From: Candidatus Omnitrophota bacterium
GTDB taxonomy: Bacteria; Omnitrophota; Gorgyraeia; Gygaellales; Profunditerraquicolaceae
Direction: 5' to 3'
NCBI GenBank assembly: GCA_030650425.1
Contig: JAUSED010000012.1
Location: 64,905 to 128,904, forward strand
DNA: 64,000 bases
In this document: piece by piece, positions 4,542-37,069 of the stretch
Layout: the number at the start of each line of letters is the position of its first letter
Position numbering within the stretch: position 1 is the stretch's first letter
Notes under the pieces: generated by a model
Told to the model about the DNA's origin: nothing
The model's database searches: none
What the model saw: the letters and a program-made list of their open reading frames with translations, nothing else
Position numbers and translations under genes: made by a program

Positions 4542-4585
4542 TAGGGATTGACTGAGGCTGTTAAAAATAGTAAAATAAATCCGCT

Positions 4586-5143
4586 ATGGAAGATAATTTC
4601 AAAGAATTAAAAACAAAATTATTTGCCTTGTTGGAAAAAGAAGCCTTAAAGAGAGGTGACTTTTTGCTCTCGAGCGGCAAAAAAAGCAGCTATTATCTTG
4701 ACGGACGGGTGATTACCCTGACTCCTGAAGGCGCGTATTTAACGGCGAGTATTATTTTAGCATTGATCAAGGATAAGCAGATAGACGCGTTGGGAGGCCC
4801 GACATTAGGAGCAGACCCGATTGTGGGAGCGGTTAGCGTTTTAAGCCACATAAAAAATATTCCTCTAAAAACGTTTATCGTAAGGCCGGCGGCTAAAATT
4901 CATGGGACTAACCGTCAAGTGGAAGGCCCTGAGCTAGCCAAAGGGAGTAAGGTTATGTTGGTCGATGATGTAGCTACCACTGGCAAAGCGCTTATTGAAG
5001 CCAAGCAGGCCTTGGATAAACTGGGCATCATTACCAAGTCAGCCTTGGTGATCGTCGATAGATGCGAAGGCGCTAAAGAGAATTTGAGCAAAGAAGGCTT
5101 GAGCCTGGAATCTATATTTACCATAAAAGACTTCGGACTGTAG
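4586..5143 (+). CDS. pyrE: Orotate phosphoribosyltransferase
   Basis: 185 aa, PRPP-binding motif MLVDDVATTGKA, PyrE-like length and N-terminus. Confidence 0.9.
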   Translation: MEDNFKELKTKLFALLEKEALKRGDFLLSSGKKSSYYLDGRVITLTPEGAYLTASIILALIKDKQIDALGGPTLGADPIVGAVSVLSHIKNIPLKTFIVRPAAKIHGTNRQVEGPELAKGSKVMLVDDVATTGKALIEAKQALDKLGIITKSALVIVDRCEGAKENLSKEGLSLESIFTIKDFGL

Positions 5144-5146
5144 AAA

Positions 5147-5183
5147 ACAAGGGACCGTTTCCCTAAAGGGAAACGGTCCCTAA
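5147..5183. terminator. Perfect 13-bp stem hairpin (GGGACCGTTTCCC-taaa-GGGAAACGGTCCC) between pyrE and the next gene
   Basis: Seen directly in the sequence. No strong T-tract follows, so it could be a bidirectional or factor-assisted terminator. Confidence 0.45.
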
Positions 5184-5192
5184 TCGATTATA

Positions 5193-6437: not shown

Positions 6438-6551
6438 CGGGTCCTGCTCGGGCCTCGGGGTCCTGCCACCGAAGTTTCCCCATTCCTGCGGGCAAGTTTG
6501 TCCTCGGAATAGGGATGCCCCTCTCGGTGTCACCCCTCGGCAACATTTTAT

Positions 6552-10129: not shown

Positions 10130-10581
10130 GTAAAATTGTCGCCTCTAACCATAAAGGATACCGGGATTATAGCGTTATCGAGAGTTTTGAGTGCGGCATT
10201 GAACTAAAAGGAAGCGAAGTAAAGTCCATCAGGCAGGCTAAAGTTACTTTGAATGACAGCTTTGCCCGCATTGAAGAAGGCGAGCTGTTTTTATATAACA
10301 CGCATATAAGTCCTTATGCTGAAGCTAGTTATATGAATGTCGAGCCAACGCGAAAACGCAGGCTCCTTTTGCATAAGAATCAGATTGAGAAGTTAGAGGG
10401 TAAGTTGACCCAAAAAAGCCTTACCCTCATTCCCCTAAAAGTGTATTTTAATGACCGGGGATTCGTAAAGGTTGAATTGGCTCTTTGTAAAGGAAAGAAG
10501 CTCTACGATAAAAGAGATGATATTAAGCGGCGCGAAACGGATTTACAGATGCGCCGGATGATGAAGAACATAAGAAAATAG
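10126..10581 (+). CDS. smpB: SsrA-binding protein
   Basis: 151 aa; conserved SmpB motifs (…NRKARHDYxI-like start, KRRLLLHKNQI, and a basic C-tail). Confidence 0.9.
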   Translation: MSKIVASNHKGYRDYSVIESFECGIELKGSEVKSIRQAKVTLNDSFARIEEGELFLYNTHISPYAEASYMNVEPTRKRRLLLHKNQIEKLEGKLTQKSLTLIPLKVYFNDRGFVKVELALCKGKKLYDKRDDIKRRETDLQMRRMMKNIRK

Positions 10582-11004
10582 GGGGTGAATTGGGCTCGAC
10601 TTAGGCCGTCGGGTAAGAGCAGCATGTCGCGGACGCATGGTTAGCCGCGTTAAAAACCCGTGCACAATACAAACGCAAACACAAAAAACCGTTTGTTAAA
10701 TAACGTTCAGCCAGTAATGGCAACTCCAGTAATGGGGATGCCGTTATTTGCTGGCGTTATGCCAGTCTTCGGTAACTAAATTACCGAAGCCTCTATCCAT
10801 CCAGCCTACGGGATGAAATAGAGACTTAGTAGGATAGTCCCGCGTAATTTGCCTTTGTAGGCGGGATGAAGCTTTTAAAGGCTGCGGTTTGCAAATCCTG
10901 CCTTGCGGGAGTTGCAAGCGTAAGCGTAAAACACAGGGCTAAACATGTAGCGGCTTTTATTCGGTTGTTTAAGGACGCCGGTTCGATTCCGGCCACCTCC
11001 ACCA
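10581..11004 (+). ncRNA. ssrA: tmRNA (transfer-messenger RNA), one-piece
   Basis: 5' end GGGGGUGAAUUGGGCUCGAC pairs with the 3' CACCUCC-ACCA, including the G3:U wobble alanine identity element. The T-arm is GCCGGUUCGAUUCCGGC. A long P2 helix pairs ~10605–10620 with ~10953–10968. PK1 stems: CGCGG (10628–32) with CCGCG (10645–49), and GCAUGG (10635–40) with CCGUGC (10658–63). It lies immediately 3' of smpB. Confidence 0.9.
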
Positions 11005-19694: not shown

Positions 19695-19770
19695 GGTGGC
19701 TATAGCTCAATTGGTTAGAGCGTCTGACTGTGGCTCAGAAGGTTTGCGGGTTCGATCCCCGTTAGCCACC
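19695..19770 (+). tRNA. tRNA-His (anticodon GTG) with G-1
   Basis: Extra 5' G pairs with discriminator C. Acceptor GTGGCTA/TAGCCAC, anticodon stem TCTGA/TCAGA with loop CUGUGGC, T-loop TTCGATC. Resembles E. coli tRNA-His. Confidence 0.85.
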
Positions 19771-21199
19771 CTAATTCTAAATGGCGGTTTTCCGCCATAA
19801 ATTTGAAGTCGGAACTATAAGAAACAATTAGGGTTTTGTTATACAGCTTAAGGTTCGATACAATTTTTTGCAAAAAATCACGCTGGGCGTCGGGATTTGC
19901 CTCCGCTGCGATGTAACTGGCTTGGTGAGCAAGAGTTAGAAAGTTTTTGAAGTGTTCGAGCCAGTCCCCGTTACTGTCACCCTTTTCTGAAATATCGAAC
20001 TTCCTGCTAAACAATTCGGCTTTCTTCTGCTTATACTCTTCGTCGGTAATGATACCCTTTAGCGACATGTCCAAGAGCCGCTTTAGCTGGTCGTCAACCT
20101 CTTGCGTTTTCATTTCGCCGCTAATCCGGTTATGAACTTTTTCCGCTGCAAGGAACGCCCGCTCTCGCTCTAACTCTTTTATCATCCAGGCATAGGCATT
20201 GTCATCAAGCGCAACTTTCTCGATGGCCTCTTTGACTTGTTGGGCGAGATTTTCTTCTCTAAGAAAAACAGAAGACTGCTGGCAGGGATCGCGTTTTTTC
20301 GAGCAATGATAGTAGTGATGTCCTTTTTGAACCTCGGCTGTTATTTGGCAGCCACATTCAGCGCACCTTATAAACCCACGGAAGACAAAATAATGTTTCC
20401 TCTCGTAAGAAGGTTTGCTCCTGAATCTTAAAATCTCCTGCACCTTATCAAATAATTCTTTGTTTATAATAGGCGGGTGGCTGCCCTGGAAAATCTCGCC
20501 CTTATACACAAAGAGGCCAAGATAGAATTGATTCGTTAATATCCGGTGGACGTTACTGTACGAAAGCGGGCGCTTGGCTCTCTTGCTCACCAAGCCAGAC
20601 GCAGTCGCCAATTTTCTCAACTCATCAACCGTATATCTTCCTTCAGCGCACAAGGCATACAATCTCTGTACAAGGGGAGAGGCGAGGGGATCAACAGTTA
20701 TTTTACCTCTATCGTTTAAATACCCGATAGGCGCGAATGCGGGATATTCGCCAAGCCTTACCTTTTCGCGCAAGCCACGCTTAGTGTTTTCGCTTAGATT
20801 ATCAACGTAGTATTTACTCTGACCGAAAATAATATTGAGCATAAACTTGCCTTGTGCGCTGTTATCGAAGCGGTAAGTAGGGAAGCGAAGATCAAGGATA
20901 TCCCCGGTATCTACGAGATAGATAATTTTTCCGCCATCTATCGAGTTGCGCGCAAGTCTATCCGGATGCCAGGCGATGATGCCGGACGCCTCACCTTTCT
21001 CAATTCGTTTAATCATTTCGTCAAATATCGGGCGTCCGGGTGACTTAGCTGTCTTGGCTTCTTGAAATTCCTGAACTATTAAGAGGTTTTCTTTCTTGCC
21101 GTATTCGCGAACTTCGTTTAATTGCGACTGAATAGAGAGGACTTGCTTATCTTCTGTGTCGGTAGACTTGCGCGCATACAAGAAATATTTCATCTCCAC
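19715..21199 (-). CDS. Large serine recombinase (resolvase catalytic domain + recombinase domain + zinc ribbon + coiled coil)
   Basis: Catalytic motif YARKSTDTEDKQ near the N-terminus; zinc ribbon CAECGC...HCSKKRDPC; 494 aa. The last ~62 codons run through IR-L and antisense into the 3' half of tRNA-His. Confidence 0.9.
   Translation of the reverse strand: MEMKYFLYARKSTDTEDKQVLSIQSQLNEVREYGKKENLLIVQEFQEAKTAKSPGRPIFDEMIKRIEKGEASGIIAWHPDRLARNSIDGGKIIYLVDTGDILDLRFPTYRFDNSAQGKFMLNIIFGQSKYYVDNLSENTKRGLREKVRLGEYPAFAPIGYLNDRGKITVDPLASPLVQRLYALCAEGRYTVDELRKLATASGLVSKRAKRPLSYSNVHRILTNQFYLGLFVYKGEIFQGSHPPIINKELFDKVQEILRFRSKPSYERKHYFVFRGFIRCAECGCQITAEVQKGHHYYHCSKKRDPCQQSSVFLREENLAQQVKEAIEKVALDDNAYAWMIKELERERAFLAAEKVHNRISGEMKTQEVDDQLKRLLDMSLKGIITDEEYKQKKAELFSRKFDISEKGDSNGDWLEHFKNFLTLAHQASYIAAEANPDAQRDFLQKIVSNLKLYNKTLIVSYSSDFKFMAENRHLELGWLTGIEPANLLSHSQTL
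19773..19901. repeat. Left copy of a perfect 129-bp inverted repeat (IR-L)
   Basis: Reverse complement is identical over 129 bp to 21324–21452. Starts 3 nt after tRNA-His. Encodes 43 C-terminal residues of the recombinase. Confidence 0.9.
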
Positions 21200-21323
21200 A
21201 CCTCCTTAGAAAATTGGCGACTGCGTCCGTCAAGCATTTACGGAACTTATATCGCAGCGGGTCTGCTCAAAGAGCAGACAGTTATAAAATTTTGAGTCCT
21301 CAACAACTCAAAATTATTTAACA

Positions 21324-21452
21324 GGCAAATCCCGACGCCCAGCGTGATTTTTTGCAAAAAATTGTATCGAACCTTAAGCTGTATAACAAAACCCTAATTG
21401 TTTCTTATAGTTCCGACTTCAAATTTATGGCGGAAAACCGCCATTTAGAATT
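21324..21452. repeat. Right copy of the perfect 129-bp inverted repeat (IR-R)
   Basis: Identical to the reverse complement of 19773–19901. Lies 125 bp upstream of the recombinase start codon. Confidence 0.9.
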
Positions 21453-22080
21453 GGGGTCCTTGCTTTCTGGTAATCGAAAGATTTTTAGCTCCAAATATAC
21501 TTAATTTTTTCTCGTCTCTCTGAAACCCCTCTACTCCCCGGGGTAAAGCCCTAAGGAAACAGCTTAAAATGCACCGCGCCCACAAACAAATTCTTTCCCG
21601 GAAAGAACCTCTACTACTATATTATCGCCGCTCTGCCCCGCCCTTTAAGGTTACTGTATCTAATACCGGGGTAAAGCTGGTCTCTAAGGAAACAGCTTAA
21701 ATGCACCGCGCCCTGGGGGGCGCTCCCACATTGAGCGTGCATTGGCGCTCGCTGGGCCGCTCGCTTCGAGCTAATTTTAGTGCGTGTGCGGCGCAGCTGT
21801 GGCTTGCGCCGGGCGGGGGCGGCGCAAGCCACAGCGTCCTCACCCGACATGCTGTTACAAGCTAAAAACAAAATTTTTTAGAGAGGTTCGTCCGCTATGC
21901 CGCTATTACTCCCCAAATACAGCTTTGGACGCGGCATTGCTGCGCCTCTCCCGATCAACACTTTAAAGCTCAAACATTGGGGCGGGCGTGGTGCTGCCTG
22001 TCCTCCGCAGGAGGAGGCACGTCCGCCCCACATCTACCCTTGGCTCCGGCAAAATTTGGTGCGGGCAAATTTTGCCTAAC
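21453..22080. other. GC-rich (about 65–70%) structured non-coding segment with two ~45-bp direct repeats and several perfect hairpins
   Basis: Direct repeats 21538–21581 and 21666–21713. Perfect 16-bp hairpin 21796–21835. 10-bp hairpin GGCAAAATTT/AAATTTTGCC near 22040–22075. No ORF with coding character. Confidence 0.4.
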
Positions 22081-22201
22081 CCTTAAAACCATTAGCTCAA
22101 AGAAAGAACGAAAAAGAGATATTTTAAAAAGCACTTTTGGTGTATAATATTGCTTAATAATGATGGATTAAATATACTTTCCTGATAATGCTATCATAAT
22201 A

Positions 22202-22454: not shown

Positions 22455-24392
22455 ATGCAAAATTTAATCGATGACTTGCTGAAGTTATTAAAAAAAGACG
22501 AGCGTCTTGTTTCGCAAGATGGCGTACTTTTAAAAAATCAAACACAGGAATTGGCGCGCAAAAATGATCCCCAGCTCATAAAACTTTTGCTTTCTGATAA
22601 AGCCATAAAACAGCACTTCTTTTTTGAAGTCGAAAAGGCTCTGATTTTTGATAAAGAAAAATTCGTCCGCTTTGTATCCAATAAACAGTTTTTACCGGAT
22701 TCATATACCACATTTTCTCAAAATATTGGACTATTGCACGAAGATGGAAGGATGTTCAGAGAAATTAATGCTGAAAAAGAAGTTGTTTTGGTTTGGCCTT
22801 ACAAGGATTGTATTTTGGAAGGCGGGATGACCAAAGAAGACCTAAAGCGCGATGAGATTTTTTATAACGAAACCTTGGCGCCGGATGACATTAACCGCTT
22901 GATGGATGCCAAAGTTTTCACCGATTTCAAACGGATAGACAAAAAGGGCGAGCATAAACTGGACGGCTTCAAGCGTGATGAAAGAGGTACAATTAAAGAC
23001 AATTTGATTATTAAAGGAAATAACCTTCTTGCACTTGCTTCGCTTAAAAAAGAATTCGCAGGGAAAGTGAAATTGATTTACATTGATCCGCCATATAATA
23101 CCGGAGGTGCCGTTGATACCTTTACATACAACAATGACTTTGATCACTCCACGTGGTTAGTTTTTATGAAAAATAGGCTTGAAATAGCCAAATCATTTCT
23201 GAGAGAGGATGGATTTATTGCAATTACTATCGATCACGAGGAATTATATTATTTAGGCGCATTAGCCGATGAAGTATTTCGTAGAGAAAATCGGGTTGGT
23301 TTAGTCACAATCTATATAAATCCAAAAGGAAGACAGCATGAGAAGTTCTTTTCTGCTGCGACTGAATACATGCTTATATATGCGAAAAATAAAGTTAGTG
23401 CGAAATTTAATAAAATTACGCTAGATGATGAGATAGCCGAAACTTTTGATTTTTCTGATGATGATGGGGATTATCGCTTGGAAAAATTTATTAGAGCAAG
23501 AACTAGTACGTCGAGAAAAAATAAGCCGGATTTTTATTATCCGATTTATGTAAGTAACGATCTGAAGGATATTACGCTCATTAAGAAACCTGGCTATAAG
23601 GCGGTATTTCCTATCCAAAATGGTGTTGAATACTCTTGGAAAACTATTTCCAAGACATTTGATGAGCGAAATATAAACGGCTTTTTTGTTGCCAAAAAGG
23701 AACAAGGCGAAATTGTTATTTATCATAAATACTACGAACAGCAGGTTTTAAAGAACCTATGGACTGATAAAAAGTATTTTCCTGAATTTCAGGGAACAAA
23801 CTTGTTAAAAAAACTTTTGGGGGCGAACCTGTTTAGTTATCCTAAATCTTTGTATGCGGTGGTAGACACATTAAAGATTATGACCAGCGGAAATGATATT
23901 GTTATGGATTTTTTTGCAGGCTCAGGCACCACTGGGCACGCAACCCTAGCGTTAAACGAGGAAGATGAACAACAGAGGCAATTCATTTTGGTTGAACAAT
24001 TAGATAGACATATTGATGTTTGTATAAAAAGAATAAAAAAAGTCTTGGAACAAAGCACAAAACAGAACAACTTCATATATATGGGGCTCGCAAAATGGAA
24101 CGAGGATTGGATAGAAAAAATAGAAAAAGCTAAGACCGGAAAAGAGCTTGCCAAACTTTGGGACGAGATGAAAGAAATCGCCTTTTTGAGCTACAAAGTT
24201 GATCCAAAAACAGTTGATGCAAATTCCAAAGAATTCGCAGATTTGGGGATTACCGACCAAAAGAAGTTTTTGGTTGAATGCTTGGATAAAAATCAGCTTT
24301 ATATCAATTTGAGCGAGATTGAGGATAAAGAATACGGGGTGAGCAAAGATGATAAAGATCTGAATAAGAGCTTTTATAATGGGAAACAATGA
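22455..24392 (+). CDS. mod: Type III R-M Mod subunit (beta-class N6-adenine DNA methyltransferase)
   Basis: Motif IV DPPYNTGG precedes motif I FFAGSGTTGHA (beta-class order); 645 aa; overlaps the start of res. Confidence 0.85.
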   Translation: MQNLIDDLLKLLKKDERLVSQDGVLLKNQTQELARKNDPQLIKLLLSDKAIKQHFFFEVEKALIFDKEKFVRFVSNKQFLPDSYTTFSQNIGLLHEDGRMFREINAEKEVVLVWPYKDCILEGGMTKEDLKRDEIFYNETLAPDDINRLMDAKVFTDFKRIDKKGEHKLDGFKRDERGTIKDNLIIKGNNLLALASLKKEFAGKVKLIYIDPPYNTGGAVDTFTYNNDFDHSTWLVFMKNRLEIAKSFLREDGFIAITIDHEELYYLGALADEVFRRENRVGLVTIYINPKGRQHEKFFSAATEYMLIYAKNKVSAKFNKITLDDEIAETFDFSDDDGDYRLEKFIRARTSTSRKNKPDFYYPIYVSNDLKDITLIKKPGYKAVFPIQNGVEYSWKTISKTFDERNINGFFVAKKEQGEIVIYHKYYEQQVLKNLWTDKKYFPEFQGTNLLKKLLGANLFSYPKSLYAVVDTLKIMTSGNDIVMDFFAGSGTTGHATLALNEEDEQQRQFILVEQLDRHIDVCIKRIKKVLEQSTKQNNFIYMGLAKWNEDWIEKIEKAKTGKELAKLWDEMKEIAFLSYKVDPKTVDANSKEFADLGITDQKKFLVECLDKNQLYINLSEIEDKEYGVSKDDKDLNKSFYNGKQ

Positions 24393-27300
24393 TGTTATAT
24401 GACGAATTTAATACATATAAAAATTTTGCCGGTGCCGATGTTTTCAAAAATAAGGCGTTAGCAAAATCGGAGATTTTGAAAAGTATCAATCCGGCTTTTC
24501 CTGCGCGTGAATACCAGAAGGAAACGCTGGGACGGTTTTATTATTATTGTGAAGAATATCACCAAAAACAAAAGCCGATCCATTTGATGTTTAATATGGC
24601 GACCGGTTCGGGCAAGACGCTCATCATGGCGGCCAATATTCTATATTTATATCAAAAAGGCTATCGTAATTTCATTTTTTTCACCCGCCTTGGCAATATC
24701 ATCCAAAAGACGAAAGCCAATTTTCTCGATCCGACTTCTAAGAAATATCTCTTTGCCGACAAAATAGTATTTGGCGGGAAAGAAGTAAAAATCAATGAAG
24801 TAGATAATTTTGAGGGCGTCAGTGATGAGGACATAAGCGTTATTTTTTCTACCACATCGCTTTTACACTCTCGTTTTAATTACGCCCGCGAAAATGTTTT
24901 AACTTACGAAGATTTTGAGGATAAGAAAATTGTGTTGATTGCCGATGAAGCGCATAACTTGTCAGCGGAAACAAACGGTAAGATTAGCAAAACTGATGAA
25001 GAAGACCGCCGAAATTGGGAAAACACAGTAATGCGGATTTTGAACGCCAACAGCCAAAAAGACAATGTGCTTTTGGAATTTACGGCTACTGCCCGGCTTG
25101 AACAGGAATACCCGGAAATCATTGAAAAATATAAAGACAAGGCAATTTATCGGTACGATCTTAAAGAATATCGCTTGGACGGATTTTCAAAAGATGTGCG
25201 AACGTTACAGATTGATGCGCCGATTATGGAGCGAGTGCTTTCGGCGGTGATTATTTCACAGTACCGTTTAAAAATAGCGGGAAAGCACAAAATCGCATTA
25301 AAGCCGGTAGTTATGTTTAAGGCCAATAGGGTAAGTATTCCCAAGGAAGGAATATCTAAAGCGTATAATCCGCAAATTGTCGTTTCAAGTATTTTTAAGG
25401 ATTCTTTTCACAAGCTTATTGCCGGGCTCAATGAAAAAGCAATTCAACAGCAAGCCAAAATCAAAGATGACACATTACAAAAGGTTTTTCGATTCTTCAA
25501 AGAGCAAAAAATCTCACTATCTAATTTGGCGGAAGAAATCAAAAATGATTTTGCGCCTGAAAAATGTATAACAGTTGATGATGATAAAGATTTGGAGCAA
25601 AAACAACTTCTGTTGAATTCACTGGAGGATCGAAATAATGAAATTCGAGCGGTTTTTGCTACTGAAAAATTAAACGAAGGTTGGGATGTTCTCAACCTTT
25701 TTGATATTGTCCGTCTTTACAATAGCCGTGACGCTAAAGGCAATAAGCCGGGGAAAACGACGGTTCAGGAAGCACAGCTGATTGGGCGAGGAGCAAGATA
25801 CTATCCATTTACGATTGCGGATTTTACTGATCCATATCGCCGAAAATATGATGCTGATACACAAAATGAGCTTCGGATTTTAGAACAGCTTTATTATCAT
25901 AGCGTTACCAATACCAGATATATTCAAGAGCTAGAAACTGTCCTAGTCCGTGAAGGCATTATTCCTTCTCGAACAGTGCAAAAAGAAATAAGAATAAAAG
26001 CCGATTTTAAACTTAGCGATTTTTGGAAGGAAGGATACATTTTCTTAAATTCACGCAAGCAAAATTTGGGTAAGGATATTTTTGCGCTTTCGGACGCCAA
26101 AGCGGTATTTGATTACAATGCCGAAAGCAATATTTTTCAATTACCGACAAGAGAAGCAATTGAAAAAGATTTATTCGTTGCTGGCGCTGGTGTTGGAGAA
26201 AAAGCTAAGATAGAAATCAAGGAATTTAGACTCATTGACTTAGGAAGGCATGTCATTCGCACTGCTTTGATGAAGATACCTTCTGGGCAATTTAACGAGT
26301 TAAGCAAGATATTCGGCAATATAGAATCTGCGAAAGATTTTATTTCAAACGAAAAATACCTTGGTGGAGTCAAAATAAAAGTCAAGGGCACAAGTGAGCA
26401 GGTAGCGAATCTTCTGCAGGTTGAAAAATTAAGCATTGCCGGATTTGTGGTTGATAAAGTGCTAATAATTGCAACTAAAGAGAAAAAAGAATACTACGGG
26501 ACAAATGAATTTAAGGCTCATTTGGTCCAGAAGATATTTGAAAACGATAAAGTGCTCCAGTTGGACAGTGAAAGCCCGAGAGCGCAAAATATGCGGGATT
26601 TCGATTTTGATAATAAGGAATGGTTTGCGCAAAACGAAATCTGGGGGACTAGCGAGGAAGAGGCATTTTTGCGATTTATTGATGAGGCAATAGCCAAACT
26701 ACAGAAGAAATATCAAGATATTGCCTTGCTCCGCAATGAGCAGTTTTTCAAAATTTACAGCTTTGAAAATGGCGAGCCATTTTATCCGGATTTTGTTTTG
26801 TTTTTGACCGAGAAGAAGACGAAGCAAGAAGTTATGTATCAAATATTTATTGAGCCCAAAGGCGACCAATTCTTGGATGCGCAGAACACCTTTGAACAAT
26901 CTAAAGAAAGCTGGAAGCAAAAATTGCTTCTTGAAATAGAAAATAATCATACTGTTGATTTAAAAATAGAAAACAAGGATTTTCGTTTAATAGGCTTGCC
27001 TTTTTATAATAAGCAATTGCAGGAGAAGTTTAGCGAGGCTTTTGAGCGATTTGTTGATTCGCCCAGACAGGAGAAATCGGATTTATTCTTTAGCGATGTT
27101 ATTCCGGAATCAACTTACTCAGAAGGCTATCTCCCAATTTGCGATCTTCAGGCAGTAGCAACTTCTTTCCGAGAGCAAAAGACTCCTACGATTAAAGGCT
27201 GGAAGCCCGCGAAGAAGAAGTATACAGAGGGTTATTTTATCGCTCAGGTCATAGGCAAATCTATGGAATCGACCATACCTGACGGAAGCTGGTGTTTGTT

Positions 27301-27562
27301 CCGGCCAGACCAAGGCGGTTCGCGTAATGGCAAAATTGTGTTAGCTGAATCACGCAGGGTAACTGATCCCGAAACCCAGCAAAGTTTTACCATCAAGAGG
27401 TATAGAAGCGAAAAGAGGCAGTTTAAGGATGAAACGTGGATCCACACCAAAATAACTCTTTCCCCGGACAATAAAGAATTCAAAGATATCGTCCTAAAAA
27501 ATGTTCGTGAAGATGAATTCCACATAGCGGCGGAGTTTGTGGAGGTCTTGTCAAAAGAATAG
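24389..27562 (+). CDS. res: Type III R-M Res subunit (SF2 helicase + endonuclease) with C-terminal LexA/S24-like autopeptidase domain
   Basis: Walker A MATGSGKT; DEAH box LIADEAHN. The C-terminal ~120 aa align to the LexA C-domain: GKSMESTIPDGSW (Ser motif), NGKIVLAE, and FTIKRY (Lys). Confidence 0.8.
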   Translation: MMLYDEFNTYKNFAGADVFKNKALAKSEILKSINPAFPAREYQKETLGRFYYYCEEYHQKQKPIHLMFNMATGSGKTLIMAANILYLYQKGYRNFIFFTRLGNIIQKTKANFLDPTSKKYLFADKIVFGGKEVKINEVDNFEGVSDEDISVIFSTTSLLHSRFNYARENVLTYEDFEDKKIVLIADEAHNLSAETNGKISKTDEEDRRNWENTVMRILNANSQKDNVLLEFTATARLEQEYPEIIEKYKDKAIYRYDLKEYRLDGFSKDVRTLQIDAPIMERVLSAVIISQYRLKIAGKHKIALKPVVMFKANRVSIPKEGISKAYNPQIVVSSIFKDSFHKLIAGLNEKAIQQQAKIKDDTLQKVFRFFKEQKISLSNLAEEIKNDFAPEKCITVDDDKDLEQKQLLLNSLEDRNNEIRAVFATEKLNEGWDVLNLFDIVRLYNSRDAKGNKPGKTTVQEAQLIGRGARYYPFTIADFTDPYRRKYDADTQNELRILEQLYYHSVTNTRYIQELETVLVREGIIPSRTVQKEIRIKADFKLSDFWKEGYIFLNSRKQNLGKDIFALSDAKAVFDYNAESNIFQLPTREAIEKDLFVAGAGVGEKAKIEIKEFRLIDLGRHVIRTALMKIPSGQFNELSKIFGNIESAKDFISNEKYLGGVKIKVKGTSEQVANLLQVEKLSIAGFVVDKVLIIATKEKKEYYGTNEFKAHLVQKIFENDKVLQLDSESPRAQNMRDFDFDNKEWFAQNEIWGTSEEEAFLRFIDEAIAKLQKKYQDIALLRNEQFFKIYSFENGEPFYPDFVLFLTEKKTKQEVMYQIFIEPKGDQFLDAQNTFEQSKESWKQKLLLEIENNHTVDLKIENKDFRLIGLPFYNKQLQEKFSEAFERFVDSPRQEKSDLFFSDVIPESTYSEGYLPICDLQAVATSFREQKTPTIKGWKPAKKKYTEGYFIAQVIGKSMESTIPDGSWCLFRPDQGGSRNGKIVLAESRRVTDPETQQSFTIKRYRSEKRQFKDETWIHTKITLSPDNKEFKDIVLKNVREDEFHIAAEFVEVLSKE

Positions 27563-27639: not shown

Positions 27640-28482
27640 ATGGAAATAATTCTAAACATAGTATCGGGTGGTCTTTCAGGCGCATTGTTAGTGTGGCTTT
27701 TGCGCCACTGGATTTCTGAGCGCATAAAAGAAAGCATAAAACACGAGTATGCGCAAAGACTTGAAGCATATAAGGCTGAACTTAATGCCAATATCCAGTC
27801 AGTGTTACATGAACAGCAACTATATCAACTTCGAACGTCTCTTTTTTTTGAACACCAGCGGCTGGCGTTCGCTTCTATCCTTAGCCAGATTGCTGAAACT
27901 AAGCAAAAATGGTTTGAAACTGGATATGATTCAGAGTTGGGGTGGCAAGAGCAGGTTCCAGTACCTACTGGGGAATACGATAAACTGAAAAAGGCATATT
28001 ATGATCATCAGCTTTTTTTAGATCAGGATTGTATTTTTGCGCTTGATTTAGTTCTTGAAGCAATGAGCGATTCATTCCCAGTTCAAGAGGGGGATGGTAC
28101 ATTGCATCATAGAGACTGCGAAGAGCCTTATGAGCGCTTGGTGTTCTTGCAAGAACGAGTTGCTCTGCTTTTTCAGGAAAAAATAGGGCTCAGAGTGTCG
28201 CAAGAAATAAAGACGGAGCTTGCTCTTTTAGGGGCAATCAGATTGCTCAATCGTTATCATTTTAAGGATATAGATCTGCCGGTTAAAGGGCCTTTGAAAT
28301 TGACTGCCGAAGATAAAGCTTTTGATGCTGTGATTAAGGCAGAAAAAAATAAAGCGGAATTGGTTTCAAAGTTAACTGAATTTAGAAATCATCTGGAGAA
28401 GGAAGGTTTCTTTCATGATGCATGGGAAATGGCAACCCGATGCCTTAATCTCCTTTCTGCCACAAAGAAAATTCCTACATAA
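27640..28482 (+). CDS. Hypothetical protein with N-terminal TM helix
   Basis: ORF with coding-like composition only; no motif recognised. Confidence 0.35.
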   Translation: MEIILNIVSGGLSGALLVWLLRHWISERIKESIKHEYAQRLEAYKAELNANIQSVLHEQQLYQLRTSLFFEHQRLAFASILSQIAETKQKWFETGYDSELGWQEQVPVPTGEYDKLKKAYYDHQLFLDQDCIFALDLVLEAMSDSFPVQEGDGTLHHRDCEEPYERLVFLQERVALLFQEKIGLRVSQEIKTELALLGAIRLLNRYHFKDIDLPVKGPLKLTAEDKAFDAVIKAEKNKAELVSKLTEFRNHLEKEGFFHDAWEMATRCLNLLSATKKIPT

Positions 28483-28565: not shown

Positions 28566-29705
28566 ATGGATAGATTGATTATTATAGGCGAGCGCCTCAA
28601 ACGCGCTCGCGAATCGTTGGGATTAACTCAAGAAGATGTGGCCGCCAAGCTTGAGATTGGCAGGCCTCGTTATTCTGATATTGAAAACGGTAAAAGGGAC
28701 GTTCCGTTAAAAGATCTCTACCGGTTTGCTGAATTTTACGGACGTCCGATCGATTATTTCGTTAAAGAAACCTTATTGACTGATAGCGGGTTCAAAGTTC
28801 TTTTCAGGAAGACCGAAGGCGACGAAGAAGTTGCTCGAGTTGTTACTGAATTTGAAAATCTATGTGAGAAAATGTGCGAGCTTGAGAATATATCAGGCGT
28901 TACAGTCCGGCCGCCAGTCAGTCAGGATTATCAATTTGAACGGAATAGAGAATGGTATTGGGGCAAGCATTACGCGGATATTGAAAGAAAACAACTTGAT
29001 CTCGGCCAAGCCCCACTGCGAAATTTAAGCCAGCTTCTCGAAGAGAAACGCGGCCTTAAGATTTTTTATCTGCCTATCCCGCCTGAACGCGGCGTTTACG
29101 GAATGTTTACTTATGATCAGAAGATGGGCGGATGCGTTCTTATTAATTCAAATCCGAATTTTGGCAATCAGCTTTTTTCGCTCGCGCATGAATACGCTCA
29201 TTTTGTGTTCCATAAAGAGAAGTTGGGTATTATTTCGACGGAGCAAGAGAGAAACTCAACAGATGAGAAAGTCGCGAATAGTTTCGCAAGCAATTTCCTA
29301 ATACCGGAAGATACCTTGCGCGATCTTTTTAGTATGAGAATCAAGGAAGATGATGATGTTAAGTCGGAAGATGTTATTTATCTTGCGGATTATTTCGGAG
29401 TTAGCTTTACCGCAATGGTATATCGCCTTAATAATTTAAAACTTATTACAGATAAGATTAAAGATGAACTTATAAATTATACTTGGGTAACCTCCGTTCG
29501 TGAATCGATGGGGATATCTGAGCCGGAGCGTAGCAGATCGAAATTTCCTACCCTTTACCTGCATCTCGCCATTAAGGCCTTTCAACAGGGGAAATTAACT
29601 ACTGCCAAACTCGCCGACTTCCTGGAAATTCCTCTTTATCAAGCGATGGATCTGGGGAGAAAATTAAGAGGGAGTATTCAGGATGGGCCCGGCGACTCTG
29701 TTTAA
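28566..29705 (+). CDS. HTH-XRE / ImmA-IrrE (M78 metallopeptidase, COG2856) fusion protein
   Basis: N-terminal HTH LTQEDVAAKLEIGRPRYSDIENG; C-terminal zinc motif SLAHEYAHFVFH. Confidence 0.8.
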   Translation: MDRLIIIGERLKRARESLGLTQEDVAAKLEIGRPRYSDIENGKRDVPLKDLYRFAEFYGRPIDYFVKETLLTDSGFKVLFRKTEGDEEVARVVTEFENLCEKMCELENISGVTVRPPVSQDYQFERNREWYWGKHYADIERKQLDLGQAPLRNLSQLLEEKRGLKIFYLPIPPERGVYGMFTYDQKMGGCVLINSNPNFGNQLFSLAHEYAHFVFHKEKLGIISTEQERNSTDEKVANSFASNFLIPEDTLRDLFSMRIKEDDDVKSEDVIYLADYFGVSFTAMVYRLNNLKLITDKIKDELINYTWVTSVRESMGISEPERSRSKFPTLYLHLAIKAFQQGKLTTAKLADFLEIPLYQAMDLGRKLRGSIQDGPGDSV

Positions 29706-30660: not shown

Positions 30661-33600
30661 GTGATTCCAATTTTTTTCTGCCATATATGCGGGACAAATG
30701 GTAATTGTAATTTAGTAATTAAGCTAGCCGAGAAATTAACAGGCGATATTGAAGGGATAGACCCTTTTGTTGCTTGTCAAAATGAACGATGGAATTCTGC
30801 CAAAGACTTAAATGCGTCATTAAGCCAATCATATATCTTCATCCCAATTGTCAGTCCAGGATTTAAAGATAGAAACAATTGCACTTCAGAATTAGCGCAA
30901 ACCCGGAATCGAAAACAATTCGGGAAATTTCCTCTTATTATTCCTATTAAATTTAATTGTGGCGATGCTCTTATGAATAATCTTGGTTTTACCATAGATC
31001 AAGAAACGGAACAGGGCGATAAGTGGATAGACTTCTCTAATGAAGTCGAATTTGATTCGAAATATGAAGAATTATATCGGCGGATTCACTACTGGTCAAT
31101 AGACAATGATCTGGTAACAAATAAAGATTTCCACAAAGACCGTAAGGTATTAGATGTTATATTGGGCGAGAATGATCCAACATCCAGCCAGATAAAAATA
31201 GCTATAGATTATTGTCGTAAAGGACAAGAATACAGCCTGTATTTTTTGAAAAATCTTTCCAATCCTAAATGGCTGAGTCATTTGTATGCATCAGGGTTTT
31301 TTGCTTTTAATCCAGTTCCAGTAGAATCAGAAAAAAATGAAGGATTTTACAGTATTCCATTATGGGCAGCTGTTATATTTTTAGAAAAAATTGCTGTGGG
31401 CTTGGGTAAAAAAGATAAAGAAAGAATGCTTGATATTATTCGCAAGGTATCTAAGCCAGCTCCTCCTGCAGTAAAGCAAGATAATTGGAGAACATGGCAA
31501 TCGTTTGTAAAAATTCTCTCAAAGTTACAGATTGATGACATTTTAAGCGATGACATTGAGATGATCGCAGAATGGCTATATAGTAAATTTGATACATCAA
31601 TGGTGGTTATTGAGATTGGAAAAACTCTTTTGCCGAAGGTACTAACAGAAGTAAAAACAGCTGAGGATGCTAACAAGGTTGTTCGGATTATCCAAATTGT
31701 ATTAGATTCTGTCAGAGTTGAAAGAAGACATGGCATGATGTCTCACGGTCTTCAAAAAATGTTTAAAAATAATTCTGATTTACTCGGAGAAAAATGTGGG
31801 TTAGCACTTTTGGAAATTATACGAAACAAACTTGAAAGCGTTGTAGAAGAAAAGGATGATGCATATTGTTATATTTGGCGTCCTGCTATTGAAGATAGCG
31901 AACAAAATGTCGCTTCAGATGAGTATAGGCATATTCTTATTGCAGGTTTTAGGGATATTTATCTTAAATTCGCCTCTTTTCATAATGCAGAAACCTTTTT
32001 GCAATCATGTTACGAGTCGCCCAGAGATATCATCCAACGTATAGCATTTTATGTTATCGGTAAGCTATTTGATAAATATAAGAAATTAGCAGAGGAGATC
32101 CTGCTAAAAGACGCCAATAAAACATTTCTCAAAAGTAATTATCACCACGAGTTATATTTTTTGATCACAAAACATTTCACATTGTTATCAACGGATGTCC
32201 AATCTTCAGTGATTGATATTATTTCTGGCCTGACTGGTGATTGGAAAGATGATTCGGACAAGGATAGATTAAACTGTATGCTTCGTAGACGATGGTTATA
32301 TGCGGTTAAACAATCTGGATACAATATTTCAAATGAGTTAGAAGACAAATATTTTAAAGATATTGAATATAAACCTGAACATCCAGAATTTTTGAGTTAT
32401 ATCGGTCCTGTGTCATGGGGTGATGAATCAATGTTTTCATCGGCAGAGTTATTGTCTAAAGGTGGCATTGAAGAAATGGTTACCTTTTTAAATAATTTTG
32501 AAGGCAAAAATAGATTTGGAGAGACAGCTATACGAGAAGCAGGCCAGTCTTTTAAAGAAGCGATTAAAAATAAGCAGGAAGTATTTGATAATCATTTGCT
32601 TGAGTTTAAAAAGCTTAAATATGAGTATTGGTATTATGCAGTGCAGGCTTTTGAAGAACTCGTGCAAGATAAAAAGACGATTGGATGGGAGAAGGTTTTA
32701 GAGTTTTGCAATGAGATTATTTTAAGTGAAATATTATGGGATGGCAAAGGCAAAAAGAGCGATTACCCGCTTGAGCCAAAAAAAGATTGGATCCCGGCCG
32801 TTATATCAGATTTACTGAGAAAGGGGCTTCAAGAAGATTCAATCATTTTTACAGAATCGCAATATGGGTTAATTGATAAGGTTGTTAGGGTACTGCTTGA
32901 TAAACAACCCAGTACAGCGAGTGGAGATGATAAGGATGCGTTGACAGAAGCGATTAATACTACAAAAGGGCACGTGTTGGAATGTCTCAAGAGTTATGTC
33001 CTAAGAAGATATAGAGATTTTGAAAGATTGCCCGATAAAGGAATCAGGGAGAAAGAATCTTTTTGGAAAGAGGTAGAGCCATTATTTGTTCGGGAGATTG
33101 AAGGAACAAAGGAAGGAAGCTTCGAATTTTCAAGTCTATCCGGTGCTTATTTGCCTAATCTGTATTATTTGAATAAAGATTGGGTTACTTCGAATATTAA
33201 CAATATCTTTCCTACTGAAGAAAAACATTGGCGATGCGCTATGCAAGGATATTCTTACGTGAATACCGTTTATGCGGTTATCTACAATATATTAAGAGAT
33301 AACGGTCATCTCAAACGTGCACTTGATACAAAATTTTCGAACGATCAGACAAGAAGCCGAATTATAGAAAACATAGCGGTATCATATTTAAGGGGACAAG
33401 AGACTATAGATGGTCAAAACAGCTTATTTAAATATATTTTAGAGAAATGGAACCACGATGATATTGAAGAAATAATAAGTCTGTTTTGGTCTCACAGGGA
33501 TGTTGAATTAGACTGCGAACAAAAGGCAAGAATATTTAATTTTTGGCGGCATTGTTTTAATCAGATAAAAGGGAAAGAGGACGCACATAAGGATATTCTT

Positions 33601-33945
33601 TCCGATTTGAATCTGCTAGCGGTGTTCTTTGATCCGTTAACGGCAGAACAGGTGGATTGGTTAAGACAGTCAGTTAAATACGTGGAGGAGCGTTACCATA
33701 GTTCATTCCTGCTGGAATATTTTGATAAATTAGCAGAGAACAATCCCAAAGATGTGGGAAACGTATTTTTAATAATGTTAGAGAAAACCATCCCATGGTA
33801 TAAACAGGAAAATATTCAATCTGTCGTTGAAAAGTTTTATAAAGCAGATTTGAAAAATGAAATTGCTAATCCAATTTGTGATAAATATGCAAGGGCGGGC
33901 TTCGAGTTTTTGATAGAAGTTTATCAAAAATATAACAAGAAATAA
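30661..33945 (+). CDS. Large (1094 aa) protein with N-terminal TIR-like domain and a long alpha-helical/Trp-rich C-terminal region
   Basis: GTG start with AAGGGAG RBS. TIR-like blocks PIFFCHICG (betaA), SYIFIPIVSPGFKDRNNCTSELAQ (betaC-alphaC with the Glu), FPLIIPIKF (betaD). Confidence 0.5.
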   Translation: MIPIFFCHICGTNGNCNLVIKLAEKLTGDIEGIDPFVACQNERWNSAKDLNASLSQSYIFIPIVSPGFKDRNNCTSELAQTRNRKQFGKFPLIIPIKFNCGDALMNNLGFTIDQETEQGDKWIDFSNEVEFDSKYEELYRRIHYWSIDNDLVTNKDFHKDRKVLDVILGENDPTSSQIKIAIDYCRKGQEYSLYFLKNLSNPKWLSHLYASGFFAFNPVPVESEKNEGFYSIPLWAAVIFLEKIAVGLGKKDKERMLDIIRKVSKPAPPAVKQDNWRTWQSFVKILSKLQIDDILSDDIEMIAEWLYSKFDTSMVVIEIGKTLLPKVLTEVKTAEDANKVVRIIQIVLDSVRVERRHGMMSHGLQKMFKNNSDLLGEKCGLALLEIIRNKLESVVEEKDDAYCYIWRPAIEDSEQNVASDEYRHILIAGFRDIYLKFASFHNAETFLQSCYESPRDIIQRIAFYVIGKLFDKYKKLAEEILLKDANKTFLKSNYHHELYFLITKHFTLLSTDVQSSVIDIISGLTGDWKDDSDKDRLNCMLRRRWLYAVKQSGYNISNELEDKYFKDIEYKPEHPEFLSYIGPVSWGDESMFSSAELLSKGGIEEMVTFLNNFEGKNRFGETAIREAGQSFKEAIKNKQEVFDNHLLEFKKLKYEYWYYAVQAFEELVQDKKTIGWEKVLEFCNEIILSEILWDGKGKKSDYPLEPKKDWIPAVISDLLRKGLQEDSIIFTESQYGLIDKVVRVLLDKQPSTASGDDKDALTEAINTTKGHVLECLKSYVLRRYRDFERLPDKGIREKESFWKEVEPLFVREIEGTKEGSFEFSSLSGAYLPNLYYLNKDWVTSNINNIFPTEEKHWRCAMQGYSYVNTVYAVIYNILRDNGHLKRALDTKFSNDQTRSRIIENIAVSYLRGQETIDGQNSLFKYILEKWNHDDIEEIISLFWSHRDVELDCEQKARIFNFWRHCFNQIKGKEDAHKDILSDLNLLAVFFDPLTAEQVDWLRQSVKYVEERYHSSFLLEYFDKLAENNPKDVGNVFLIMLEKTIPWYKQENIQSVVEKFYKADLKNEIANPICDKYARAGFEFLIEVYQKYNKK

Positions 33946-33973
33946 TAATTTAAAGCCCTCTTTAGGGGAATCA

Positions 33974-35755
33974 ATGAATTTAAATCAAGTCGGAGTTTAT
34001 GTACCGGTATCAGAAGTGTTCCCGGATATACAAAGCAATCTTGAAACTTTCAAAGATATATTGCAACAATTAAGTCGTACTGACACATTATTTTGGTGCG
34101 CAAGAATAAATTTAATTATCACAAATCCTATTGAAAACGGCCATATTTCAAGGCAGCAGGTTGCAATCGACAAATTTTTGACGAAGAGCGAGATTGAGGC
34201 AGTAAATCAATTTGCCATGGCTCATGGCGGGGCTAATAGAGTTACGGTCTTTTTCCGAGGCCAACTCCTTGAATTAATGCGATGGGCATTGCTGTATTGT
34301 CACAATCATCCTAACGATGGAAAGACTTTTGAAGATCCAAATACAAGAAGGATGTTTGTACAGGCTGCACTTATTGCAAGTGATCTTTGGTCAAAGTGGG
34401 TGTATGGAAATAGGTTCTCTTTAGAGGGAGGGATAAAGATTGCAAGGGAAAGATCCTTAGGAGCTATTCGAAAAGCCATTGAGGGCACATCGCTATGTGC
34501 AGAATTGACGAGATCATTTGGAAGGGGATGGACTATTTTTATGGATTATTTTCGTAAGCAATATGGTTTGCTTGCTAGCGAATTTCAGTCCAAAGCAGGT
34601 TTATCAATTGAGGACTATTTTAAATGCCTATTGATTATCACAGTTCATTTTGCCAATCCTAGAAGCAATAATACCGGCATTTTTAATGCAACAACTTTTG
34701 CTGATTCTACACCGTTGAAAGACGTGTTTCAGAAATATATCACATTTGAGTCACAGTCAATAGATGAGTTTAAAAACGCATTATGGGGCAGTGGTATAAA
34801 TAAATTAGAAATGCAATATGAAATGGAATATGATTATTTATCTATGAGAGAAAAACCAATTTTACGTGCTGAGGATAATCGAGCAATTATTTTAGATCCA
34901 ATATTTTATAGCGAAAAAGCAAGTATTGGGCCGTTGTTTGTATTGACAAAGAATAAAGCACGTGGGAAAGCAAACGAGGTTTTTAGTGCCTTCGGCAAAG
35001 CGTTTGAAAATTATTCCTGTGACATTCTGAATAAGATGTTTCCAGATATTAATGCTATCAAACAATTGTTTTGTAATCTGAAAAAAAAGGATTTAAACGA
35101 AAGAGAATCAGAAATAGACGCTTGTATTAATAAAGGCTCTGAGTCGGCCATATTTGAAATAAAAGCAGTTTGGATTCGCGAAGATAAAATATTAAATGAA
35201 AATTATGAGACATATCTACAGCATTTAAGAGAAAAATATGGTGTTGTTGGGCAGCAGGACAATCCAAAAGCGCAAACAATTAAAGGAGTTGGGCAGCTCG
35301 CACGAATATTAAATAATATATTTCGTGAGGAATTTCAGGCAAATAACAGAGAATTTAGTGAAATTGTAACAATTTATCCCATACTATTAGTTTATGATAG
35401 TTTTTTAACCGCGCCAGTTTATGGCAATTTTCTTGCTTCAGAATTTGAAAAATTACTTAAACCGGATCACAAAAGGGGCTCTGGCGAACTCATTAAAGGC
35501 AGATTCACGGTGCATCCCTTAATCATATTAACAATAGAAGATCTAGAAAATTTGGAACTTTCGGTCGAACATTTTAGTTTTTTCGAACTATTATCTGATT
35601 ATTCAACGAGCTGCCCAGACCGTTTGATATCTCTAAAAAACTACATTGCTGACTCGAAATATAATAAACAGATATATCGCAATAAAAATCTTGCCAATAA
35701 GTGTCTAGAGCTATTTAAAGAAGCCAAGCTAGCAATAGCGACAAAAGAGCAGTAG
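33974..35755 (+). CDS. Hypothetical protein (593 aa), unknown function, co-operonic with the TIR-like gene
   Basis: 28-bp gap to the upstream gene; no recognisable motif. Confidence 0.35.
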   Translation: MNLNQVGVYVPVSEVFPDIQSNLETFKDILQQLSRTDTLFWCARINLIITNPIENGHISRQQVAIDKFLTKSEIEAVNQFAMAHGGANRVTVFFRGQLLELMRWALLYCHNHPNDGKTFEDPNTRRMFVQAALIASDLWSKWVYGNRFSLEGGIKIARERSLGAIRKAIEGTSLCAELTRSFGRGWTIFMDYFRKQYGLLASEFQSKAGLSIEDYFKCLLIITVHFANPRSNNTGIFNATTFADSTPLKDVFQKYITFESQSIDEFKNALWGSGINKLEMQYEMEYDYLSMREKPILRAEDNRAIILDPIFYSEKASIGPLFVLTKNKARGKANEVFSAFGKAFENYSCDILNKMFPDINAIKQLFCNLKKKDLNERESEIDACINKGSESAIFEIKAVWIREDKILNENYETYLQHLREKYGVVGQQDNPKAQTIKGVGQLARILNNIFREEFQANNREFSEIVTIYPILLVYDSFLTAPVYGNFLASEFEKLLKPDHKRGSGELIKGRFTVHPLIILTIEDLENLELSVEHFSFFELLSDYSTSCPDRLISLKNYIADSKYNKQIYRNKNLANKCLELFKEAKLAIATKEQ

Positions 35756-35893
35756 TCACTTTGCGTGGCTGTATATAAGATCGCACTAAAAATAAACATG
35801 ATGACCGTATTTGTTTTATGGCTGCAAATAGTTGGAAATAAAACGATAACCAAAATTAATGTGATATCATAGAGATAAACTAGAAGTTTAAAT

Positions 35894-37069
35894 ATGTTAT
35901 CTTTCGAGAAAGAATTTCAAGAAATTGGACATTGTGGTGGGCAGTATACTGTAGATGTAAAAACTGCCGCTGATGGACGTAGAAGCTATCAGTTGGGTAT
36001 GCGGCATTCGCGTCCAACCCCGGCGTCATTTTTTGCTGTTTATTTTCTTCCACAAGGTATTCCTGTTGGCATGATTCAGCTTGGAGGCATTGGGCAAGCG
36101 TGGAATCCTGCGCCAGTTCCCGGTAGTCTATCAATCTTTATTGCTTCAGATACTCAAAGCATGTTTGGTCATCAATGTCAAAGGTGCGGTGGCTACTGGA
36201 GATCAAGATCGTCTCCTGTGCGCTGGCAAATGACATGTCCTTATTGTGGGTTACGAGCTGAAAGCCATGCCTTTTTGACGGAAGGTCAGCTTAAGTATGC
36301 TAAGGCTTGTTGCGAGCTAATAGAACAAGCCCTATCCTCTGATAAAGACGGTGAATCTGTTGTGGATATGGACAAAGTGGCAGATGCAGTAGGAAAAGAC
36401 AGCGAAAAACCAAAGTTTTATTATGCAGAACAAAGCCAGCAGAATAAATACACATGTCCGGTTTGTAAAGAACTTAATGACATACTCGGGCGATATGGCT
36501 ATTGCTCCAGCTGTGGTACATATAATGGTGTTTATGAGCTCGAAAGTGATCTAAAGGATATTCGCGATAAGATTGCAAAAGGCAACCAGTATGAAGATTG
36601 CGCGAGAGATGCAGTAGCCGCTTTTGACAGTTTCGCTCGTCAAATAGTAAAACAGCTGGCAAAACGTATCCCTATGACACCTGCACGACAAAAAGAATGG
36701 ACTGGAAAGCTGTTCCATAATATAAAGCCATGCGCCGATGCCTTAAAAACCGTTTTTGACATTGATGCATTTAAGAGCTTTAAACAGGACGATATTAGTT
36801 TTGCTGTTTTTATGTTTCATCGAAGGCACATTTATGAGCATAACGGGGGCGAGGTTGATGAAAAGTACATTAAAGATAGCGGGGACACCTCTGTGCGTGT
36901 TAAGCAAGTTATACGCGAAAGCTCCCAAACAGCAAATAGAATTGTTGGTCTTGTTTCCAAGATGGCGCAAAATATTTCTGATGGATTTCATGAGATTTTT
37001 CCGGCTGAAGATATGCCGATTAAGCTCCAGCAGAATTCAAGGAAGAGCAAGGTCGCGACTGGCGTTTAA
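35894..37069 (+). CDS. Hypothetical protein (391 aa) with two zinc-ribbon motifs; GC-richer than its neighbours
   Basis: CQRCGG...CPYCG and CPVCK...CSSCG; codon usage is more GC-rich than flanking genes. Confidence 0.35.
   Translation: MLSFEKEFQEIGHCGGQYTVDVKTAADGRRSYQLGMRHSRPTPASFFAVYFLPQGIPVGMIQLGGIGQAWNPAPVPGSLSIFIASDTQSMFGHQCQRCGGYWRSRSSPVRWQMTCPYCGLRAESHAFLTEGQLKYAKACCELIEQALSSDKDGESVVDMDKVADAVGKDSEKPKFYYAEQSQQNKYTCPVCKELNDILGRYGYCSSCGTYNGVYELESDLKDIRDKIAKGNQYEDCARDAVAAFDSFARQIVKQLAKRIPMTPARQKEWTGKLFHNIKPCADALKTVFDIDAFKSFKQDDISFAVFMFHRRHIYEHNGGEVDEKYIKDSGDTSVRVKQVIRESSQTANRIVGLVSKMAQNISDGFHEIFPAEDMPIKLQQNSRKSKVATGV

Follow-up and report, generated by a model that had tools for sequence, protein, structure and literature searches.

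A LexA/UmuD-type S24 peptidase module at the C-terminus of a Type III restriction subunit and of many other DNA-cutting defence enzymes

A complete Type III restriction-modification (R-M) operon, comprising genes for a C-protein, a modification methyltransferase (Mod) and a restriction subunit (Res), lies on an island linked to tRNA-His in a Candidatus Omnitrophota genome, within a 64-kb stretch of contig JAUSED010000012.1 (assembly GCA_030650425.1) that was analysed as a whole and is called the window below. The res gene is an uninterrupted open reading frame (ORF) of 3174 nt on the forward strand (24389..27562) encoding 1057 aa, with its start overlapped by the mod stop codon (24389 vs 24392), and mod itself starts 31 nt after the end of the C-protein gene. 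In the Mod translation, the DPPY and FAGSGTT motifs are present. The Res translation contains the helicase motifs GSGKT and DEAH as well as the nuclease motif YPDF...IEPKG, with the Pfam ResIII match extending over residues 39-235 and the PADLOC REase_III match over residues 62-883. All features of a Type III Res, including a superfamily 2 (SF2) helicase, a C-terminal PD-(D/E)xK nuclease and an adjacent Type III Mod, are found at this locus. The coordinates of the features are listed in Table 1.

The Res core is ~85% identical to 895-aa Res proteins that end at residue ~892, and the homology to this ordinary form stops at its natural C-terminus, beyond which ~165 residues are added from about residue 893 (nt 27065). 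An initial annotation, made from the sequence alone, had assigned a LexA/UmuD-like S24 domain to the C-terminus of Res. This is borne out by the profile search, in which Pfam PF00717 (Peptidase_S24; gathering cut-off 23.3 bits) matched residues 929-1049 with 37.6 bits (E 2e-9) in the whole protein and with 41.7 bits (E 1.1e-10) when the last 153 aa were searched alone. The domain start given there, 27190, is too late; the conserved module can be traced back to about residue 893-897 (nt 27065-27077), which makes it ~40 residues longer than described. The three sequence blocks on which the annotation was built are present in the tail, including GKSMESTIPDGSW at residues 956-968, NGKIVLAE at residues 980-987 and FTIKRY at residues 1000-1005. 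Exactly where the ordinary Res ends, this protein has gained an intact S24 module of the LexA/UmuD type, 165 residues long and composed of an arm, a cleavage-site region and a catalytic core.

The annotation had also assigned the Ser and Lys blocks correctly. In the profile-to-LexA alignment, the family GkSM motif falls on LexA GMSM (Ser119) and the family tvKR motif on TVKR (Lys156), which correspond to Ser958 (GKSME; codon tct, 27260-27262) and Lys1003 (IKRY; codon aag, 27395-27397) of Res. Both residues are invariant in 84/84 tail relatives (alignment A2), and in a wider set of 227 sequences, consisting of 150 cluster representatives, ORFs from genome loci and the window protein, Ser is kept in 224/225 and Lys in 225/226. 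Because phmmer and profile searches against Protein Data Bank (PDB) sequences yielded LexA matches only at insignificant values (E 0.04-2), a fold comparison was needed. The tail structure was predicted with a mean predicted local distance difference test score (pLDDT) of 88.1 and a predicted template modelling score of 0.83, and in a Foldseek search against the PDB the top 35 matches were exclusively LexA, lambda cI and UmuD' (probability 1.0), in line with the LexA-like fold expected from the annotation. By profile, predicted fold and aligned Ser/Lys dyad, the tail is a member of Peptidase S24.

The NCBIfam lexA and umuD models gave only weak, sub-threshold matches, and the tail is therefore an S24 domain without being an orthologue of LexA or UmuD. 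An identity with LexA proper was rejected, as TIGR00498 scored 18-23 bits against a cut-off of 110.95 over model positions 113-199 only and a DNA-binding domain is absent; an identity with the UmuD of a umuDC operon was rejected as well, as there is no umuC neighbour, the neighbours being Mod, a 280-aa ORF, a helix-turn-helix (HTH)-M78 protein and a TIR-like protein. Instead, the window tail belongs to a large and distinct S24 clade. Residues W938, C969, R979, Y1005, S1007, K1009 and H1019 (27200-27445) are near-invariant in this family but lack an equivalent in LexA; along with the arm motif KSDLFFSDV, they may indicate a clade-specific binding surface.

Among the 120 Res clusters nearest to the window protein (73-92% identity), PF00717 is carried only by P0001, P0002 and the partial P0049, and the other 117 clusters are mostly 885-915 aa long, with a few shorter partials, and derive mostly from metagenome-assembled genomes (MAGs) of Patescibacteria and Omnitrophota. 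The P0001 fusion occurs on 13 contigs from JGI and ENA samples in the same Mod-Res arrangement. Between the window protein and its relative L002, the ratio of nonsynonymous to synonymous substitution rates (dN/dS) is 0.082 in the Res core and 0.083 in the tail, of which the S24 core alone gives 0.051. Since the same architecture is found in P0001, P0002 and P0049 and the dN/dS values indicate purifying selection, the Res-S24 fusion is real and kept by selection, and it is recent within this Res lineage. A conserved partner gene 3' of res-S24 was also considered and rejected, as the 280-aa ORF at 27640-28482 is dissimilar to the downstream genes in the P0001 loci; comparison of the genes downstream of res-S24 in the window and in the P0001 loci revealed no gene that travels with the tail.

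The fusion is present in three of the 120 nearest Res clusters, but it is no peculiarity of this Res, because the module is very widespread on restriction and defence enzymes. A search with the tail alone retrieved relatives of 40-78% identity, which are preceded by HsdR C-terminal domains (PF11867), Type ISP C-terminal domains, TnsA-like nuclease domains, DUF2075 helicases or DUF3037. When 1.84 billion representative proteins were searched with a profile, 643 clusters were matched at E<=1e-30, in which the module is nearly always at the extreme C-terminus of host proteins of up to 1969 aa. When 49 long members of these clusters were scanned with Pfam, ResIII was detected in 15, the SLFN-g3 helicase in 11, Type_ISP_C in 10, Eco57I in 6, MZB in 5, SWI2_SNF2 and nSTAND NTPases in 4 each, MmeI in 2, and AlwI and LlaJI in 1 each. 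Species-representative genomes, scanned with alignment A4 because A2 was too diverse for this purpose, contain the module at no fewer than 592 loci. In the best 80 of these at least 592 loci, the module stops 0-13 residues short of the stop codon, and its partners, assigned by clustering, Pfam and PADLOC, are Type I HsdR (35 loci), a Nhi/AbiO-like DUF2075 helicase of ~795 aa (18), Type ISP enzymes (8), Type III Res (3), a Type IIG/DrmMI-like enzyme (1) and a DruE-like helicase of 1975 aa (1). These partner enzymes share one property, namely that they translocate on and cut DNA. The hosts are chiefly Omnitrophota, followed by Planctomycetota, Bacillota, Acidobacteriota, Nitrospirota, Proteobacteria and others. 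A phage origin of the module was rejected, as just 2 module loci were found among 2.9 million viral contigs.

Two different module loci occur in one MAG in two cases, L010 with L018 and L050 with L051 (CAYIQK01 and CAYGIT01), which is consistent with one cellular signal addressing several enzymes. Among the apparently standalone S24 relatives, P0124, a free 'S24 family peptidase' of 177 aa, is in fact the C-terminal part of a Type I HsdR ORF of 1199 aa that runs uninterrupted from a TTG codon (L001, 4935-8534; GCA_030688425.1, Omnitrophota), a long ORF that the public gene call seems to have missed, and L086 appears to be frameshifted. Only L008 looks like a truly separate, overlapping gene; at this locus (3144-6492), the module is encoded as a 169-aa gene of its own, with a TTG start codon that overlaps the stop codon of the preceding 948-aa gene (TTGAGTAA), and it is possibly a naturally split, UmuD-like version of the module.

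The N-terminal part of the module is conserved as well. The arm motif is kept in the close clade regardless of the N-terminal partner, and residues 903-912 are modelled at a pLDDT of ~91. Within the predicted cleavage-site region, the putative scissile bond is Ala924|Thr925 (gca|act, 27158-27163). Across the 227 sequences, P916 is conserved in 212, L920 in 205 and F927 in 206; the P1 residue is Ala in 205 and Cys in 12, and the P1' residue is Gly in 152, Thr in 48 and Ser in 16. The most frequent sites are AAA|G, AVA|T, VAA|G (the LexA form) and AAC|G (the UmuD form), and a canonical site (AAA|G, VAA|G or AAC|G) is present in two thirds of the family members. The window protein shares its Ala|Thr site with 47 others, and the sub-clade with Thr at P1' to which it belongs makes up 51 of the 84 A2 sequences. 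Ser and Lys are fully kept in this sub-clade, which speaks for continued use of catalysis. The conserved Pro precedes P1 by 8 residues, the same spacing as in UmuD. Judged by its sequences, the family has the complete anatomy of a self-cleaving S24 protein.

Table 1 Coordinates of the R-M operon, the S24 module and the likely left edge of the island in the window
Feature	Position	Strand	Support
tRNA-His	19696-19771	+	ARAGORN and Rfam; abuts large serine recombinase gene
Large serine recombinase gene	19715-21199	-	Resolvase, Recombinase and Zn_ribbon_recom domains
XRE/C-protein-like HTH regulator, 73 aa	22202..22423	+	HTH_3 5.3e-15; PADLOC Control_protein 9.8e-11, capH 2.3e-10
Type III Mod methyltransferase, 645 aa	22455..24392	+	TypeIII_RM_meth 6.8e-21; N6_N4_Mtase 8.1e-27; PADLOC MTase_III 5e-132
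Res core, residues 1-892: SF2 helicase motor and PD-(D/E)xK motif	24389..27064	+	ResIII 3.7e-24; PADLOC REase_III 2.3e-111
Arm motif KSDLFFSDV, residues 897-905	27077..27103	+	Marks N-terminal edge of module
Predicted cleavage-site region LPICDLQAVA|TSF, residues 915-927	27131..27169	+	Conservation in 227 sequences
S24 catalytic core, residues 929-1049	27173..27535	+	PF00717; Ser958 and Lys1003

The C-protein-like XRE gene noted upstream of mod in the initial annotation is indeed present, with matches to HTH_3 and the PADLOC Control_protein model. It is not specific to the S24 fusion, because an HTH gene also precedes mod in the homologous Type III locus L006, which has no S24 module. L006 carries an additional 237-aa gene between mod and res (5291-6004) that has no counterpart in the window, and it adjoins phage tail genes and CD-NTase/Cap15 genes. 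In the window, the tRNA-His and serine recombinase genes are likely the left edge of a low-GC defence island carrying the R-M system, and the GC content falls to 0.35-0.40 across 22-36 kb. A 135-nt inverted repeat with 99% complementarity (19768-19902 / 21323-21457) flanks nearly the entire recombinase gene, its left arm beginning within the tRNA-His 3' end and spanning the coding sequence for the C-terminal part of the recombinase; the repeat could reflect an invertible segment or a feature of the assembly. Between the recombinase gene and the R-M operon, the stretch 21500-22100 is GC-rich and non-coding, GGGGTAAAGC...CTAAGGAAACAGCTTAAA(A)TGCACCGCGCCC occurs in it twice alongside long GC hairpins, and a search of this stretch against Rfam gave nothing above noise.

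The R-M neighbourhood is a defence island, since the neighbours of the operon include an HTH-M78 protein and a TIR-like protein. The former, with HTH and Peptidase_M78 (ImmA/IrrE) domains (28566-29705), matches RmrA, PDC-M69B and capP in PADLOC, and its gene is absent from the P0001 loci. Together with the capH-matching XRE gene, it may represent a second, transcription-level DNA-damage-responsive layer of the island. Further downstream (30661-37069), a 1094-aa protein with a weak N-terminal TIR_2 match (23.7 bits, under the cut-off) is followed by proteins of 593 aa and 391 aa with no Pfam match, and the three genes are probably more defence genes of the low-GC island. A second S24 module was not found in the 64-kb window. 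As to the host, the window encodes a TPR protein with 100% identity to one annotated from a Candidatus Omnitrophota MAG.

We favour the interpretation, with a probability of about 0.5, that the S24 tail is a self-cleaving switch, most likely stimulated by activated RecA, that down-regulates restriction upon DNA damage. The proteolytic, possibly damage-triggered control of Res proposed in the initial annotation is plausible, and the conserved internal cleavage-site region strengthens it. By analogy with LexA, lambda cI and UmuD, the cleavage-site region would enter the Ser-Lys active site and the chain would be cut after Ala924, freeing a 133-residue core and leaving a Res that ends in ...LQAVA-COOH. 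The trigger would most likely be RecA-single-stranded DNA (ssDNA) filaments, which form once the chromosome has been damaged or has come under attack from the cell's own restriction enzyme; in every well-studied S24 protein that we know of, self-cleavage is accelerated by such filaments. The preferred outcome is that restriction would be turned down, as a built-in, damage-triggered restriction alleviation, either by loss of a domain required for activity or assembly or by exposure of an Ala-rich C-terminal degron, comparable to the LexA N-terminal fragment that is then degraded by ClpXP. Down-regulation is favoured because most partners are classical R-M enzymes, which have a self-damage problem after DNA injury, because ~97% of the nearest Res homologues function in the absence of the tail, so that the core needs no activating, and because the new C-terminus (AAA, VAA or AVA) resembles the end of the LexA fragment that acts as a ClpX signal after cleavage. 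For Type I enzymes, an alleviation of restriction through proteolysis by ClpXP upon DNA damage is established (PMC4231737, PMC11109961, PMC12707154), and latent ClpX signals are uncovered by LexA cleavage, according to Neher (2003) as related in PMC10584840.

Several observations weigh against this interpretation. Cleavage at Ala924|Thr925 is not assured, because P1' is Thr rather than Gly in the window protein and its clade (48/218 sequences) and the LexA G85D and lambda cI G112E variants are non-cleavable. Moreover, AlphaFold gives the site as a short low-confidence helix (block 31-40, pLDDT 61) and not as a docked strand. In at least one relative (L008), the module appears to have a gene of its own that overlaps the end of the putative R-subunit gene, and a mechanism based on a degron at the R subunit can therefore not be universal. 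In addition, a transfer-messenger RNA (tmRNA) at 10581-11004, with a strong Rfam match of 170.7 bits, has an ARAGORN-predicted tag, ATPVMGMPLFAGVMPVFGN, without the usual Ala-Ala end, and no canonical tag was found in its other reading frames either; for lack of this end in the predicted tag, the ClpX-degron analogy may not be transferable to this host. Finally, the results are compatible with either direction of the switch, off or on.

It is possible, though unlikely, that the tail works in the opposite direction, as an autoinhibitory or sensory element whose removal would unleash the nuclease-translocase in an emergency or abortive response triggered by activated RecA or phage recombinase filaments during infection. 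Such a trigger would help the Nhi/AbiO-like DUF2075 helicases, the DruE-like helicase and the nSTAND NTPases, which have no methylation-based discrimination of self from non-self, and the anatomy of the module would be the same as for a down-regulating switch. Most partners, however, are classical R-M enzymes (HsdR, ISP, Res and IIG) that already discriminate by methylation and deal with incoming DNA before RecA filaments form, and the tail-less majority of Res homologues speaks against a core enzyme in need of activation. A role without self-cleavage, in which the S24 domain would serve dimerisation, the binding of RecA or another protein, or cleavage in trans, for example of a phage anti-restriction factor, is a little more doubtful still. 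The C-terminal domains of LexA, cI and UmuD' do dimerise, and the Thr at P1', the helical low-confidence cleavage region of the model, the invariant residues that LexA lacks and the one split version encoding a separate polypeptide (L008) would all fit such a role. A purely structural function nevertheless does not account for why Ser, Lys and the P1 Ala/Cys, with canonical A|G or C|G sites, are almost absolutely conserved, and the S24 proteins known to us cut themselves or a partner subunit of the same protein.

Constitutive maturation, in which the tail would be removed after folding or assembly without any sensing, is improbable. S24 proteins do self-cleave slowly without RecA, which counts in its favour, as does the LexA-like regulator IrvR, which is described in PMC7101444 as RecA-independent. 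On the other hand, a disposable pro-domain would hardly have reached so many unrelated enzymes at >40% identity with a conserved arm. An artefact, namely a chimeric assembly or a read-through into a separate downstream S24 gene, is very improbable: although the window comes from a MAG and some relatives (L086) appear frameshifted, the ORF is uninterrupted, the same junction is found in independent assemblies from several samples, the tail is under purifying selection, and full-length fusions are present in dozens of genomes.

Returning to the down-regulating switch, its likeness to known systems is partial. Compared with the C-terminal domains of LexA and lambda cI (MEROPS clan SF), the N-terminal partner here is an 892-residue helicase-nuclease instead of a DNA-binding repressor domain, and the module differs by its Thr at P1', two insertions (DPETQQ and a SEK...H hairpin) and its family-specific invariant residues. 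It is like UmuD in having no DNA-binding domain, a short N-terminal arm before the site, the shared Pro-to-P1 spacing, Cys|Gly sites in some family members and, in L008, a split form resembling the free-standing UmuD, whereas it differs from UmuD in being fused or coupled to restriction enzymes, without a umuC neighbour, and in scoring 13-18 bits with NF007621 against a cut-off of 110. ClpXP-dependent alleviation of EcoKI, directed at HsdR, is similar to the proposed switch in that a restriction subunit would be shut down by proteolysis when host DNA is at risk after damage or recombination, and the module is most often joined to Type I HsdR. Alleviation of EcoKI is signalled by a stalled translocating complex and relies on a protease that is a separate protein, whereas here both sensor and protease would reside in the restriction subunit. 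The CapH/CapP and ImmR/ImmA systems, each an XRE repressor with an M78 protease, likewise tie defence or mobile-element genes to DNA damage via proteolysis, and the CapP/RmrA-like HTH-M78 gene lies 1 kb downstream of res in the window. Those systems are transcriptional, with a metalloprotease cleaving the repressor, whereas the S24 tail would act post-translationally on the enzyme itself.

In full-text literature searches, no account was found of an S24 domain attached to a restriction enzyme or another defence enzyme; neither S24 nor LexA is mentioned in a comprehensive 2025 review of R-M biology, and the DefensePredictor and Druantia papers are likewise silent on such domains. Precomputed Pfam annotations already contain the architecture implicitly, but it appears not to have been interpreted so far. 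Its parts are known and their widespread combination is new, which implies a new regulatory principle for restriction enzymes. The presence of the module on many DNA-cutting defence enzymes points to a hitherto undescribed link between restriction and DNA-damage signals. More tentatively, one portable self-cleaving S24 module might let many unrelated immune enzymes, from Type I, ISP, III and IIG restriction enzymes to Nhi-like and Druantia DruE-like helicases, sense RecA-ssDNA filaments and shut off or switch state, which would provide enzyme-autonomous restriction alleviation and autoimmunity control with no dedicated regulator.

Restriction enzymes endanger their host when unmodified sites arise through DNA damage, through repair or through the acquisition of a new system. 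To our knowledge, the degradation of EcoKI-type HsdR by ClpXP is the only well-understood safeguard, and we know of no equivalent for Type III and Type ISP enzymes and many newer defence nucleases. The module occurs on six or more enzyme classes in no fewer than 592 species genomes. If the proposed switch is true, a LexA-like tail on the cutting subunit would be a simple and transferable safeguard, linking innate immunity post-translationally to the SOS signal, and the module could serve as a compact damage-responsive protein switch for engineering.

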